This document shows positions 3,437 through 59,900 of a stretch of 64,000 bases of DNA, one piece after another (within the stretch, counting starts at the first letter, position 1; every line of letters begins with the position of its first letter). The stretch lies in the NCBI RefSeq assembly GCF_058153355.1, contig NZ_CM177019.1. The stretch is one strand, 5' to 3'. The notes beneath the pieces are model-generated. The model saw nothing but the letters and a program-made list of their open reading frames with translations, did no database searches and had not been told where the DNA came from. Position numbers and translations under genes: made by a program.

Positions 3437-5101
<1,665 letters not shown>

Positions 5102-45407: not shown

Positions 45408-45783
45408 CATGCCTGCAATCTGGGAAACCGGGGTAGAAAAAAACTTGCAGGCCATAACAGTATCTACGCAGCTCCTGCAATATATTGAATTTTCATGCTT
45501 TTGTAGGCAGGATAAGGCGTTCACGCCGCATCCGGCATGAACAAATCGCACTTTGTCAGCAATTTGGCCCCCGTAAAATATAACCATTTAATAAAACCCG
45601 CTAAAAATTATCGATTCATCAATAAATACATCCTCACACCAGACCTTTTTTCACCAATCGACAATCACCATTACGTTTTTTATTCCCCCCCTGCCAAATC
45701 GCTTGCGCACAGTGCTGCTTTGCGGCATTTTTTTAAACAAGCAAACACAACAAGCAACAAATACCAGGTTAACGGAGAAGGTT

Positions 45784-47448
45784 ATGTGTTCAATTTTTGG
45801 CGTATTCGATATCAAAACAGACGCAGTTGAGCTGCGTAAGAAAGCACTCGAGCTGTCACGCCTGATGCGTCATCGTGGCCCGGACTGGTCCGGTATTTAT
45901 GCCAGCGATAACGCCATTCTCGCCCACGAACGTCTGTCCATTGTTGACGTTAACGCGGGGGCGCAACCTCTCTACAACCAACAAAAAACGCATGTGCTGG
46001 CGGTAAACGGTGAAATCTACAACCACCAGGCATTGCGCGCTGAATATGGCGATCGTTACCAGTTCCAGACCGGGTCTGACTGTGAAGTGATCCTCGCGCT
46101 GTATCAGGAAAAAGGGCCGGAATTTCTCGACGATTTGCAGGGCATGTTCGCTTTTGCCCTGTACGACAGCGAAAAAGATGCGTATCTGATTGGTCGCGAC
46201 CATCTGGGGATCATCCCACTGTATATGGGCTATGACGAACATGGTCAGCTGTATGTGGCCTCAGAAATGAAAGCCCTGGTGCCGGTATGCCGCACGATTA
46301 AAGAGTTCCCGGCGGGGAGCTATTTGTGGAGTCAGGACGGCGAAATCCGTTCTTATTATCACCGCGACTGGTTCGACTACGATGCGGTGAAAGATAACGT
46401 GACCGACAAAAACGAGCTGCGTCAGGCGCTGGAAGATTCCGTTAAAAGCCATCTGATGTCTGACGTGCCTTACGGTGTGCTGCTTTCTGGTGGTCTGGAT
46501 TCCTCAATTATTTCCGCGATCACCAAGAAATACGCCGCCCGTCGCGTGGAAGATCAGGAACGCTCTGAAGCCTGGTGGCCGCAGCTGCACTCCTTTGCTG
46601 TAGGTCTGCCGGGTTCACCGGATCTGAAGGCAGCCCAGGAAGTGGCAAACCATCTGGGCACTGTGCATCATGAAATTCACTTCACTGTACAGGAAGGTCT
46701 GGATGCCATCCGCGATGTTATTTACCACATCGAAACCTATGACGTGACGACTATCCGCGCTTCAACGCCGATGTATTTAATGTCGCGTAAGATCAAGGCG
46801 ATGGGCATTAAAATGGTGCTGTCCGGTGAAGGTTCTGATGAAGTGTTTGGCGGTTATCTCTACTTCCACAAAGCACCAAACGCCAAAGAGCTACATGAAG
46901 AGACGGTGCGTAAACTGCTGGCCCTGCATATGTATGATTGCGCGCGTGCCAACAAAGCGATGTCAGCCTGGGGCGTGGAAGCGCGCGTTCCGTTCCTCGA
47001 CAAGAAATTCCTCGACGTGGCAATGCGTATTAACCCACAGGATAAAATGTGCGGTAACGGCAAAATGGAAAAACACATCCTGCGTGAATGTTTTGAAGCG
47101 TATCTGCCTGCAAGCGTGGCCTGGCGGCAGAAAGAGCAGTTTTCCGATGGCGTCGGTTACAGTTGGATAGACACTCTGAAAGAAGTGGCGGCGCAGCAGG
47201 TTTCTGATCAACAACTGGAAACTGCCCGTTTCCGCTTCCCGTACAACACGCCGACCTCAAAAGAAGCGTATCTGTACCGGGAGATCTTTGAAGAACTGTT
47301 CCCGCTACCGAGCGCCGCTGAGTGTGTACCGGGCGGCCCGTCCGTCGCGTGTTCTTCCGCTAAAGCGATTGAATGGGATGAGGCGTTCAAGAAAATGGAC
47401 GATCCGTCTGGTCGTGCGGTTGGCGTTCACCAGTCGGCCTATAAGTAA
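45784..47448 (+). CDS. asnB: Asparagine synthetase B (glutamine-hydrolysing)
   Basis: 554 aa from MCSIFGVFDIK (N-terminal nucleophile Cys2); maximal ORF over-extends. Confidence 0.9.
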   Translation: MCSIFGVFDIKTDAVELRKKALELSRLMRHRGPDWSGIYASDNAILAHERLSIVDVNAGAQPLYNQQKTHVLAVNGEIYNHQALRAEYGDRYQFQTGSDCEVILALYQEKGPEFLDDLQGMFAFALYDSEKDAYLIGRDHLGIIPLYMGYDEHGQLYVASEMKALVPVCRTIKEFPAGSYLWSQDGEIRSYYHRDWFDYDAVKDNVTDKNELRQALEDSVKSHLMSDVPYGVLLSGGLDSSIISAITKKYAARRVEDQERSEAWWPQLHSFAVGLPGSPDLKAAQEVANHLGTVHHEIHFTVQEGLDAIRDVIYHIETYDVTTIRASTPMYLMSRKIKAMGIKMVLSGEGSDEVFGGYLYFHKAPNAKELHEETVRKLLALHMYDCARANKAMSAWGVEARVPFLDKKFLDVAMRINPQDKMCGNGKMEKHILRECFEAYLPASVAWRQKEQFSDGVGYSWIDTLKEVAAQQVSDQQLETARFRFPYNTPTSKEAYLYREIFEELFPLPSAAECVPGGPSVACSSAKAIEWDEAFKKMDDPSGRAVGVHQSAYK

Positions 47449-55748: not shown

Positions 55749-57626
55749 TTACGGTTCAGGGATACAAGCCACATCGCCATATTGGGGATGCCGAATAATT
55801 GCCTGCGGATCAAGCGAGCGCGTCCTGTCCATTTGGATTAACCCGTTCTTCGCCATAACAAATATCTTTCTACCATCCGCTGAAAAACGAAGATGATTAA
55901 CGTAGCTGGCAGGATAAACGCCAATAATCTGCCCGGCATTAATATTGAGCAGGATGACATAACCTTGCAGGCCATATGACACCAACGCTAAATACTGACC
56001 GTCCGGGCTAATACCCTCAACAGAATAAACGCTCCTGCTACACCATTGCGTCATAATGCTGGCTTGTTGATCCCCTGTGCTTATACGTGAAATCCCCTGA
56101 CTATCGGCAAAAATAACCTCACCATTTTTTGGTCGGAATCCCATCGCAGAAACGACACCACGCGCATCACCTGCGGGAAAGTCTTCTTTCTGATGCGTGA
56201 TGGTATTGATCCGCACGATGTTACCTCTGCCTGCTCCTGGAACCAGTAATGTTTTTTCATCCGGGGAAAGTGCCATAACCCAGGCGCCTGGTTTACCGCT
56301 CGTCCCCGTCCCGTCGTATTTCTCCAGTGCGATATCCGCCACATGCTGATAAGTCACCAGATCAATCGCTGACACACTATTACTGGTGCGATTCATCACC
56401 CAGGCTTTTGTGCCATCACGCGAGAGGATAAGGCTGTCAGGATGGGCGCCGGTGGTAATCGACTGAATAATCTCCCCCGTCGCCACGTTAACGACCGATA
56501 ATGCATTCGCTTCAAATGAAGTCGCATACAGCAACTTTTCATCGGGGCTTAACACCAGCGATCTGACGCCCTGATCTTTACAGCCACCACAATGTTTGAC
56601 TGACTTTTCTTTCGCTATGGGCGCTGTAAAGGTATGCAGGATTTTCTTTTGTCCGAGGTCGAAAACAACAATACTGTTCGTGTTTTCAATTGCGGCATAT
56701 AACGTATTACCATCCCGATTGATCGCCATATCATGGATATCGGCAATCTCAGCGAGCAAATCACCACTGGCCTGTTCACGACTTACCGGAGCGGATAATG
56801 TTTCCCTGAGGGCATTGCGTTCCTCCGCTAACTGCTGCTTTTTATGCCGTCGCTCTTGTTCAATCTCCTGCGGATAAAACTCTTCACGCAGGCTTTGCCT
56901 GACCTGCAAAACTGATTCATCAATCTGCTGCTGCACAAGCCAGATAGCCCCGGTCAGTAGAAGACTACCCGCAACAATAATCCCACCTTCCGTAACGAGC
57001 CGGTTTTGCCCAGATAAACGCGCACTCAGCCAACCCAACGCTCCACCTGCCATCAGGCCGCCAATGTGGCAAGCGTTATCTATTCCTGCTTGCCGGGCAC
57101 CATACAACAGTGTCAGCGCCACCATACCCAACAGAGAAAATACTCGCCGCTGGTTTTTATGGTGTGTACCCGCACCTGAAGAAAGCTGTGTTGCTATCGC
57201 AGCGCCAGCTATTCCCATAATTGCCCCGGATGCCCCAACGCTGATGACTATCTGCTCACTTTCGCGTAACGCATAACAGGCGCTGATGAGCCCACCAAAG
57301 ATGCCGGAGAATAACCAGATAATCAGGAGTCGCCATTTCCCCAGTATCCGTTCCGCCACTGTCCCCACCACCAGGAGTGCAAACATATTCATCAGCAAAT
57401 GGGAAAAACTACTGTGCAGAAAAACACTGCTCAATAAGCGCCAGGGTTCACCCGACAACGTGAGAGAGGCAACGTTAGCGCCGAGATGGATGAGTGCGGA
57501 TTGATCGACTTCTTCATAACTCATCCATTGTGCGAGGTAACAAAATATCCCAACACATAGCGCAAAAAGGATCAGGGTTATTGCGGGTAATTGAACATTT
57601 AACGGCTTAACCGAAGATGCAGACAT
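55749..57626 (-). CDS. Rhomboid-family intramembrane serine protease fused to a C-terminal beta-propeller (YVTN-like repeat) domain
   Basis: About 625 aa from MSASSVKPLN (AAGGAAG ribosome-binding site); rhomboid signatures GASGAIMG (GxSG) and HIGG; coiled-coil linker; repeated S/T-rich beta-strand motifs (e.g. NSIVVFDL, NALSVVNVATGE, NSVSAIDL). Confidence 0.7.
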   Translation of the reverse strand: MSASSVKPLNVQLPAITLILFALCVGIFCYLAQWMSYEEVDQSALIHLGANVASLTLSGEPWRLLSSVFLHSSFSHLLMNMFALLVVGTVAERILGKWRLLIIWLFSGIFGGLISACYALRESEQIVISVGASGAIMGIAGAAIATQLSSGAGTHHKNQRRVFSLLGMVALTLLYGARQAGIDNACHIGGLMAGGALGWLSARLSGQNRLVTEGGIIVAGSLLLTGAIWLVQQQIDESVLQVRQSLREEFYPQEIEQERRHKKQQLAEERNALRETLSAPVSREQASGDLLAEIADIHDMAINRDGNTLYAAIENTNSIVVFDLGQKKILHTFTAPIAKEKSVKHCGGCKDQGVRSLVLSPDEKLLYATSFEANALSVVNVATGEIIQSITTGAHPDSLILSRDGTKAWVMNRTSNSVSAIDLVTYQHVADIALEKYDGTGTSGKPGAWVMALSPDEKTLLVPGAGRGNIVRINTITHQKEDFPAGDARGVVSAMGFRPKNGEVIFADSQGISRISTGDQQASIMTQWCSRSVYSVEGISPDGQYLALVSYGLQGYVILLNINAGQIIGVYPASYVNHLRFSADGRKIFVMAKNGLIQMDRTRSLDPQAIIRHPQYGDVACIPEP

Positions 57627-57959
57627 AAGGTGATTCTTCCTTGAAAAGACAGGTAAAAAAGCATTTTTCCCGTGTGCAGTTATCATCCCGGCAAACGTCC
57701 CATACCGAAAAGTTAACTCTGTCCGAAATATGACTTTTTCAGCCTGAAATTACAATCGTAATTAATTCACCCCTAAGTATTTTTTGGCATGTAAGTTGCT
57801 TTATTTACTGTGTAAGCAATGAAATCAGCCGCAACGCAACCGGGTTGCACCAACACAAATCAGCGGTAGCACCAAAAAGGTGCGGTTTAAGAGTTTTGCT
57901 TCGGAATGGTGCGGCGCATCTCGCAAAAACAAACAATAAAACATCAATATCTTTACATT

Positions 57960-58081
57960 TAACCAAACTAAATGTTACCTAACAAACACAACACTGCACA
58001 ATAAAGTTGCAGATGATAACAACACAAACACTCACAACGGGTATCCATGCGTTCTTAACGCAGAAGATAAAGGAGTTGGAT
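57960..58081 (+). promoter_or_regulatory. C/A-rich gltI 5' leader (translational enhancer / candidate sRNA target)
   Basis: Long run of acaaac / caacac repeats immediately upstream of the gltI ribosome-binding site AAGGAG. Confidence 0.45.
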
Positions 58082-58990
58082 ATGCAATTACGTAAACCTG
58101 CCACAGCAATCCTGGCCCTGGCGCTTTCCGCAGGACTGGCACAGGCAGATGACGCCGCCCCGGCAGCAGGCAGTACGCTGGACAAAATCGCCAAAAACGG
58201 TGTGATTGTCGTCGGTCACCGTGAATCTTCAGTACCTTTCTCTTATTACGACAATCAGCAAAAAGTGGTGGGTTACTCGCAGGATTACTCCAACGCCATT
58301 GTTGAAGCAGTGAAAAAGAAACTCAACAAACCGGACTTGCAGGTGAAATTGATTCCGATCACCTCACAAAACCGTATTCCGCTGCTGCAAAACGGCACTT
58401 TCGATTTTGAATGTGGTTCTACCACCAACAACGTCGAACGCCAGAAACAGGCGGCTTTCTCCGACACTATTTTCGTGGTCGGTACGCGCCTGCTGACAAA
58501 AAAAGGCGGCGATATTAAAGATTTTGCCGATCTGAAAGACAAAGCCGTCGTAGTCACTTCCGGCACCACCTCTGAAGTTTTGCTCAACAAACTGAATGAA
58601 GAGCAAAAAATGAACATGCGCATCATCAGCGCCAAAGATCACGGTGACTCTTTCCGCACCCTGGAAAGCGGTCGTGCCGTTGCCTTTATGATGGATGACG
58701 CTCTGTTAGCCGGTGAGCGAGCGAAAGCGAAGAAACCAGACAACTGGGAAATCGTCGGCAAGCCGCAGTCTCAGGAAGCCTACGGTTGCATGTTGCGTAA
58801 AGACGATCCGCAGTTCAAAAAGCTGATGGATGACACTATCGCTCAGGTGCAGACCTCCGGTGAAGCGGAAAAATGGTTTGATAAGTGGTTCAAAAATCCA
58901 ATTCCGCCGAAAAACCTGAACATGAATTTCGAACTGTCGGACGAAATGAAAGCACTGTTCAAAGAACCGAATGACAAGGCACTGAACTAA
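58082..58990 (+). CDS. gltI: Glutamate/aspartate ABC transporter periplasmic binding protein
   Basis: 302 aa from MQLRKPATAILALALSAGLAQA (signal peptide). Confidence 0.9.
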   Translation: MQLRKPATAILALALSAGLAQADDAAPAAGSTLDKIAKNGVIVVGHRESSVPFSYYDNQQKVVGYSQDYSNAIVEAVKKKLNKPDLQVKLIPITSQNRIPLLQNGTFDFECGSTTNNVERQKQAAFSDTIFVVGTRLLTKKGGDIKDFADLKDKAVVVTSGTTSEVLLNKLNEEQKMNMRIISAKDHGDSFRTLESGRAVAFMMDDALLAGERAKAKKPDNWEIVGKPQSQEAYGCMLRKDDPQFKKLMDDTIAQVQTSGEAEKWFDKWFKNPIPPKNLNMNFELSDEMKALFKEPNDKALN

Positions 58991-58994
58991 TTAC

Positions 58995-59150
58995 AAGAAC
59001 CAGGGGCGGAAATTCCAGCCCTCTCGATTGTTACGTAGCACGGACAGACTATACGCCTGATGGTCGTTCCCCATCGGGCCTGAAAACCGCAATACGCTGG
59101 GTAACAATCTTCGAGGGTAGCAGTTAACGCTGCTACCCTTTTTTTTCTGG
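58995..59150 (+). ncRNA. sroC: Candidate SroC-type sRNA from the gltI-gltJ spacer
   Basis: 169-bp structured intergenic segment ending in a strong terminator hairpin gggtagcagttaacgctgctaccc plus T8. Confidence 0.45.
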
Positions 59151-59159
59151 AGTAGATTT

Positions 59160-59900
59160 ATGTCTATAGACTGGAACTGGGGTATTTTTTTACAACAAGC
59201 CCCGTTCGGCAACACCACCTATCTTGGTTGGATCTGGAGTGGTTTTCAGGTGACGATTGCTTTGTCGATCTGCGCCTGGATTATCGCTTTCCTCGTCGGT
59301 TCATTTTTCGGCATTTTACGTACCGTTCCAAACCGTTTTCTCTCCGGTCTGGGTACGTTGTATGTCGAACTGTTCCGCAACGTGCCGTTGATTGTGCAAT
59401 TCTTTACCTGGTATCTGGTTATCCCTGAACTGTTGCCGGAAAAAATCGGCATATGGTTTAAGGCAGAACTAGACCCAAATATTCAGTTTTTCCTCTCCTC
59501 CATGCTCTGTCTGGGACTGTTTACTGCAGCTCGTGTTTGCGAACAAGTACGCGCCGCGATTCAGTCGCTGCCGCGTGGGCAAAAAAATGCCGCGCTGGCG
59601 ATGGGTCTGACGCTTCCGCAGGCTTACCGCTACGTACTGTTGCCTAACGCTTATCGCGTTATCGTCCCGCCAATGACCTCTGAGATGATGAACCTGGTAA
59701 AAAACTCCGCCATCGCCTCGACCATCGGTCTGGTAGATATGGCGGCGCAGGCCGGTAAATTGCTCGATTACTCAGCCCACGCCTGGGAGTCATTTACCGC
59801 CATTACGTTGGCGTATGTGTTGATTAACGCTTTTATCATGCTGGTGATGACGCTGGTTGAACGTAAAGTTCGCCTGCCCGGCAACATGGGGGGCAAATAA
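59160..59900 (+). CDS. gltJ: Glutamate/aspartate ABC transporter permease
   Basis: 246-aa membrane protein. Confidence 0.9.

Follow-up and report, generated by a model that had tools for sequence, protein, structure and literature searches.

The C/A-rich sequence in front of gltI is a feature that is already known, and its presence here can be explained without claiming a discovery. In the explanation that we favour, the 122 nt at 57960-58081, which end right at the gltI start codon, are the 3' half of a long 5' leader of gltIJKL. One C/A-rich block in this leader (block 2 below) would serve both as a translational enhancer and as the landing site for the R1 region of the small RNA GcvB. We give this explanation a probability of about 0.9. 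On our side it is based on orthology, position, composition, predicted accessibility, complementarity and conservation; the regulation and the enhancer activity are taken from work on Salmonella, and the interaction is taken from the E. coli literature. This is textbook sRNA action upstream of a ribosome binding site (RBS), and what the analysis adds is a correct annotation, not new biology. The features at its centre are the following.

58082..58990, plus strand: gltI, the regulated gene, encoding a periplasmic glutamate/aspartate-binding protein
58071-58075, plus strand: Shine-Dalgarno sequence (SD) AGGAG, followed by a 6-nt spacer and the gltI ATG at 58082-58084, as read from the sequence
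58016..58038, plus strand: C/A-rich block 2, at -66..-44 from the AUG, AUAACAACACAAACACUCACAAC, with C+A 0.91 and no G

The window (the whole 64-kb stretch of DNA that was analysed) is, judged by its sequence, Escherichia DNA. Its interval 57600-58200 was matched in 5423 of the 5426 complete E. coli genomes, mostly at 95-99% identity and at 99.3% in E200086. The gene order is lnt, a rhomboid-family gene, gltI, sroC, gltJ, gltK and gltL, and the DNA of the locus shares 97-99% identity with E. coli. RefSeq annotation of E200086 gives lnt, a rhomboid-family protease gene on the opposite strand, gltI, gltJ, gltK and gltL, and it places the start of gltI at the same ATG. The product of gltI matched NCBIfam PRK10797, the family of glutamate/aspartate ABC transporter substrate-binding proteins, over its full length (residues 1-302, 667 bits). 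The gcvB gene lies outside the window; it was found in 5425 of the 5426 complete E. coli genomes, with at least 99% identity in 5389. Between lnt and gltI there is a 645-aa ORF on the minus strand (55749-57686) with a rhomboid-protease-like N-terminal region and beta-propeller repeats. The DNA adjoining this ORF is present in about 3236 of the 5426 genomes and is missing from K-12, which has no rhomboid gene here either.

The original prediction described the ~120 bp before gltI as dominated by CA-rich repeats. The composition is indeed extreme. The segment 57960-58081 contains 52 A, 27 C, 24 T and 19 G (C+A = 0.648), and stretches of 122 nt that are equally C/A-rich make up 0.53% of those on the same strand and 1.1% of those on both strands of the 64 kb. 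The 60 nt at 57977-58036, with C+A of 0.783, are the maximum of the entire 64 kb on either strand. The repeat motifs that had been named (acaaac, aacac and caacac) are all there: ACAAAC occurs twice (57982 and 58024), AACAC four times and CAACAC twice, alongside ten occurrences of ACA. What has to be corrected is the extent, since the signal occupies about half of the 122 nt. It is concentrated in two G-poor blocks, 57982-58004 and 58016-58038. The last 43 nt (58039-58081; C+A 0.44, G 0.30) are not C/A-rich and hold a hairpin and the Shine-Dalgarno sequence. At the other end, the C/A- and A-rich character extends upstream of 57960. Two further tracts are therefore named here.

57982..58004, plus strand: C/A-rich block 1, at -100..-78, ACAAACACAACACUGCACAAUAA, with C+A 0.87 and G 0.04; a predicted second R1 site
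57917..57951, plus strand: block 0, an A/CA-rich tract, GCAAAAACAAACAAUAAAACAUCAA, with C+A 0.80

In Salmonella, GcvB R1 targets a CA-rich element that lies 45 nt upstream of the gltI AUG (Sharma et al. 2007, as related in PMC3879156, PMC4474525, PMC7534054, PMC7769764 and PMC11347164). According to the account in PMC3879156, a 27-nt deletion that includes this element abolished control by GcvB and lowered translation, and grafting the element onto another mRNA transferred both properties. Translational repression that depends on GcvB and Hfq is reported for Salmonella (PMC3879156, PMC4474525). The 3' end of block 2 lies at -44, and the Salmonella element lies ~45 nt upstream of the AUG (PMC3879156). 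Because block 2 ends at the published position, the interpretation given by the original prediction is supported, and for the same reason the feature counts as known. One part of it, a target site for an Hfq-dependent sRNA, agrees with the literature on the Salmonella ortholog, with the E. coli interactomes and with the predicted pairing and conservation described below; the other part, a translational enhancer, agrees with the effects of deleting and grafting the Salmonella element. From sequence and position, block 2 is thus to be regarded as orthologous to the published gltI element, which is both a target of GcvB R1 and an enhancer of translation. The likeness to the element of Salmonella Typhimurium, as far as Sharma et al. 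(2007, Genes Dev 21:2804) is represented in these later papers, takes in the gene, the operon, sroC downstream, an element that ends 44-45 nt upstream of the AUG, CA repeats free of G, the R1 partner region and a sigma-54 promoter ~280-300 nt upstream. There are also differences when Citrobacter leaders are taken as the closest proxies for Salmonella. Block 2 is a few nucleotides longer in Escherichia (AACACAAACACUCACAAC versus AACAUCACAAU), and block 1, which is strong in Escherichia, is degenerate in Citrobacter.

Pairing with GcvB was predicted with an IntaRNA-like windowed scan, in which the opening energies of both RNAs are added to the duplex energy, and with the MG1655 (K-12) sequence of gcvB as the query. 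RNAduplex applied to the whole leader and the whole of GcvB returned a meaningless 200-nt duplex, with intramolecular structure ignored, and was dropped. An interaction prediction against GcvB was the check that had been proposed for this leader, and its outcome is in line with the proposal: the best site in the leader is block 2 against R1, in a predicted duplex of 58016-58041 (-66..-41) with GcvB 61-85. The hybridisation energy is -26.8, the cost of opening the mRNA is 2.4 and the total is -17.7 kcal/mol; the K-12 block 2 scores -20.1 kcal/mol. Block 2 is unpaired in both the predicted minimum free energy (MFE) fold and the centroid fold, and the six E. coli strains that were sampled, as well as K-12, have exactly this sequence.

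The pairing energy alone is modestly significant, because the best energies of shuffled leaders already average -11 to -13 kcal/mol from composition alone; the energy of the best site was reached by 5 of 100 dinucleotide shuffles in one run and by 3 of 150 in another. When the leaders of 45 long ORFs of the window are ranked, gltI comes second (mean of all ORFs -9.9, sd 3.4 kcal/mol). First is asnB, with the best predicted R1 site of the whole window at ~45740-45760 on the plus strand, ahead of an ATG at 45784 (-19.2 kcal/mol, GcvB 70-91). As asnB is a verified GcvB R1 target (PMC9299463), it is a built-in positive control of the scan. The third-best predicted R1 site belongs to dtpD, which encodes a dipeptide permease (ATG 3620); it lies at ~3626-3644 on the plus strand, in codons 2-8, and pairs with GcvB 61-80 at -17.4 kcal/mol. 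The main text of PMC9299463 does not name dtpD, and the regulon table of that paper has dtpB as a GcvB target.

In E. coli, gltI was found among the partners of GcvB R1 with RIL-seq, CLASH and MAPS (PMC9299463) and also with TRIC-seq, that is, in chimeras from four independent interactome methods; it is graded there as 'Conserved', not as 'Verified' (PMC9299463). In addition, the RNase E-dependent fall of the gltI transcript is seen only when GcvB is present (PMC11347164), and the R1 complementarity of the leader exceeds what composition leads one to expect, given the 3 in 150 shuffles that reach it. These observations weigh against the suggestion that the element is a C/A-rich enhancer or a ribosome standby site only, and that its pairing with GcvB has no real effect in this lineage. 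Such a suggestion is not without grounds: ACA and CA repeats by themselves enhance translation (PMC3879156), and compensatory mutations at the known gltI site in E. coli were reported without a clear outcome (PMC11347164). PMC3495738 makes no mention of gltI. We nevertheless consider the enhancer-only suggestion very improbable.

A regulator other than GcvB could also be imagined. If the leader were mainly the target of RprA, CsrA or Hfq alone, the match to GcvB would be incidental. RprA is a candidate in that gltI is among its common partners in TRIC-seq and RIL-seq, and CsrA in that two GGA motifs (AAGGAG and UUGGAU) flank the start region. All of the best predicted sites, however, pair with GcvB R1, as in the published interaction, and the presence of RprA or CsrA would not exclude GcvB. 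Of the alternatives mentioned in this article we find this one the least credible.

If the GcvB reading is correct, the mechanism would be as follows. Block 2, unstructured and free of G, would promote the initiation of translation. GcvB, which depends on Hfq and is made when amino acids are plentiful, would land on block 2 with its G/U-rich R1 region, which spans about nt 63-90. This pairing would mask the enhancer, less 30S would bind at the gltI RBS and less GltI would be made. In E. coli, GcvB would in addition promote RNase E-dependent decay of the mRNA. In block 1 (57982-58004) GcvB may have a second site. A hairpin between block 2 and the Shine-Dalgarno sequence would bring the two next to each other.

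Over its entire length the leader folds no more stably than its shuffles (z = 0.03), which is expected of a C/A-rich leader. No Rfam family was matched by covariance models in 57750-58150 on either strand at E-values up to 1. Two local hairpins are predicted.

57994..58012, plus strand: hairpin 1, between blocks 1 and 2, CUGCA 57994-57998 paired with UGCAG 58008-58012
58042..58069, plus strand: hairpin 2, two-tiered, between block 2 and the Shine-Dalgarno sequence, UAUC 58042-58045 paired with GAUA 58066-58069 and UGCGUU 58048-58053 paired with AACGCA 58057-58062

Hairpin 1 is present in both the MFE and the centroid fold, and part of it also in the consensus fold. Across 16 genera 76% of cells pair and no compensatory changes were found, so it is to be taken as a weakly supported prediction. 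Hairpin 2 has a fold z of -1.5, and in its upper stem 96% of cells pair, with 2 compensatory pairs within Enterobacteriaceae. Within Enterobacteriaceae the region varies too little for hairpin covariation to be distinguished from that of shuffles. Unrelated hairpin sequences occupy the place of hairpin 2 in Pantoea, Erwinia, Mixta and Mangrovibacter (z -1.7 to -4.1). The hairpin is missing from Yersinia, Providencia, Proteus and Edwardsiella, and in them the CA site adjoins the Shine-Dalgarno sequence. We infer that, with hairpin 2 folded, only a few nucleotides separate block 2 from the Shine-Dalgarno sequence; this would account for how 30S binding can be repressed over a distance of 45 nt.

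The heptamer GGGTATC (58039-58045), directly 3' of the GcvB site, is nearly invariant in Enterobacteriaceae. It may pair locally with GAUA 58066-58069 or, alternatively, with the region of the spacer and the AUG (~58078-58086), and no covariation favours one over the other. The consensus fold contains a long-range pairing of GGGUAUCC with the AUG region, which shows no covariation and competes with the UAUC/GAUA stem.

Block 2 is conserved across Enterobacteriaceae and Erwiniaceae. In nearly all sampled members of these two families a predicted R1 site lies at about -72..-41, and in Yersinia, Providencia, Edwardsiella and Serratia the predicted R1 site adjoins the Shine-Dalgarno sequence. The best R1 pairing averages -15.0 kcal/mol in 39 gltI leaders of Enterobacterales and -7.8 kcal/mol in 72 leaders of other gltI homologs (p = 2e-12), a comparison that is confounded by G+C content. 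The 72 leaders are mostly from Betaproteobacteria. We know of no GcvB in Betaproteobacteria.

Several known systems resemble the one described here. The leader of yifK (Yang, Figueroa-Bossi and Bossi 2014, PMC3879156) is a C/A-rich R1 target and an enhancer at once, and ACA is its active motif. The gltI leader has the sequence traits of such an enhancer, with CA and ACA repeats upstream of the Shine-Dalgarno sequence, 10 ACA triplets in 57960-58081 and a predicted lack of structure. The yifK site is directly upstream of the Shine-Dalgarno sequence (PMC3879156), whereas the gltI site is ~30 nt farther upstream with a predicted hairpin in between. In dppA, oppA and asnB, too, the R1 seed acts on a C/A-rich target to repress genes for the uptake or metabolism of amino acids or peptides (PMC9299463). 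Their sites are in or beside the RBS and act by direct occlusion, while the 30S footprint does not usually reach as far as the gltI site. The gltI leaders of Yersinia, Providencia and Edwardsiella are of the dppA kind, with the site beside the Shine-Dalgarno sequence and no hairpin. A third likeness is to IstR-1 on tisB and SgrS on manY, where the sRNA covers an unstructured upstream loading or enhancer sequence and not the Shine-Dalgarno sequence (PMC7534054). In contrast to these two cases, a role of S1 or of standby has not been established for gltI (PMC7534054), and a standby-like reading of its leader is conjectural.

The extent of the leader follows from the position of its promoter, for which the features are these.

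57785..57800, plus strand: sigma-54 promoter of gltIJKL, a pattern match, TGGCATGTAAGTTGCT, 297-282 nt upstream of the ATG
57869-57883, plus strand: NtrC-like site, GCACCAAAAAGGTGC
57897-57913, plus strand: degenerate NtrC-like site, TGCTTCGGAATGGTGCG

A sigma-54 promoter was taken to have GG and GC exactly 10 nt apart (TGGCAC-N5-TTGCA), and 57785-57800 was the only place found by the pattern search. Of 39 Enterobacterales loci, 35 have the pattern TGGCAY-N5-TTGCW at a distance of 270-450 nt upstream of gltI, and the sigma-54 site detected by ChIP-chip at Salmonella gltI is TGGCACGTCTATTGCTTT (PMC3844500). Transcription would then start near 57811. The 5' UTR would be ~270 nt, which is unusually long, and with a promoter at this position it would include all of the C/A-rich blocks. 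The sequence CTGCAC-N7-TTGCA at 57994-58011, within hairpin 1, was considered as another sigma-54 promoter and rejected, as it has TG instead of GG and its spacing is 2 nt too long.

The two NtrC-like sites are conserved in Enterobacteriaceae, and they lie downstream of the sigma-54 promoter, in the predicted transcribed leader. Enhancer sites are normally upstream of the promoter; here the DNA on that side of the sigma-54 promoter showed no NtrC-like site. An NtrC ChIP-seq peak in E. coli has been assigned to gltIJKL (PMC4066584).

Conservation in Enterobacteriaceae is very strong at 57952-57977 on the plus strand, an interval with TTTACA and, at 57955-57975, the perfect inverted repeat ACATTT-N9-AAATGT. 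It may function as an operator or as a promoter of atypical form. As the -35 element of a sigma-70 promoter, TTTACA at 57952 was rejected for want of an acceptable -10 hexamer.

With these elements in view, one may ask if the C/A composition is a matter of DNA-level signals (a promoter, an UP element or sites for transcription factors) and not of an RNA element. The high conservation of the upstream region speaks in favour of this, as do the A-rich tract at 57917-57951, TTTACA at 57952-57957, the inverted repeat at 57955-57975, and the NtrC-like sites at 57869-57913 together with the ChIP-seq peak (PMC4066584). But a consensus scan for sigma-70 promoters passed none in 57600-59200. Blocks 1 and 2 are downstream of all such DNA elements and within the transcript expected from the sigma-54 promoter. 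In block 2, conservation concerns the complementarity to R1 and its fixed spacing from the Shine-Dalgarno sequence, and RNA-level experiments on the ortholog are described in PMC3879156. A DNA-level explanation of the C/A composition therefore seems to us very improbable; it may fit block 0 and does not fit blocks 1 and 2.

To return to GcvB and its landing site in the leader, the other end of gltI bears on the same sRNA.

58986..59148, plus strand: sroC, directly 3' of gltI, matched to Rfam RF00369 (173.9 bits, E = 2.6e-37)
59113-59140: terminator-like hairpin in the sroC region

SroC is a sponge RNA derived from a 3' UTR that destabilises GcvB (PMC4474525). Judged from this arrangement, the two ends of one mRNA carry a target of GcvB (5') and an antagonist of GcvB (3'), and a regulatory loop would be closed.

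The one point that may go beyond the textbook is block 1, as a predicted second R1 site of nearly equal strength. Its predicted duplex joins 57982-58003 (-100..-79) to GcvB 72-90 at -16.7 kcal/mol, and none of 150 dinucleotide shuffles contained a second, non-overlapping site as good as this one. Block 1 is a strong predicted site in Escherichia only: its score is -20.3 in E. albertii and, in K-12, -13.6, and in other genera there are scores of -9 to -13 or no site at all. E. coli strains differ at the 5' edge of block 1 (CAAACAC, CAAGCAC, CAGGCAC). In K-12 MG1655, IS5D (insH3) is inserted at CTAA 57979-57982, 103 nt upstream of the gltI ATG and directly 5' of block 1, where it parts the sigma-54 promoter and the NtrC-like sites from the C/A-rich blocks. 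A third, weaker pairing is predicted for block 0 (57923-57952, -159..-130, with GcvB 62-91; -15.0 kcal/mol). The homologous site in other genera scores -13 to -17.7, and block 0 is strongly conserved in Enterobacteriaceae. Block 0 could alternatively be a DNA tract resembling an UP element, or an A-rich site for Hfq.

Taken together, these predictions allow a tentative suggestion, possible although in our opinion rather doubtful, that the gltI leader of Escherichia is a multi-site target of GcvB. Block 1 would be a second and partly redundant R1 site, block 0 would perhaps be a third, and the hairpin at 58042-58069 would set the proximal site beside the Shine-Dalgarno sequence.

The leader of gltI is an example of a genuine riboregulatory element that can be recognised from composition alone. 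If redundant sites do exist, they could explain why compensatory mutations at a single site in E. coli gave no clear outcome, and also why effects of R1 on gltI and SroC seemed independent of pairing at the known site (PMC11347164). Those who design gltI leader mutants in E. coli, or interpret them, should heed block 1 and the IS5 element that K-12 carries at its 5' edge.
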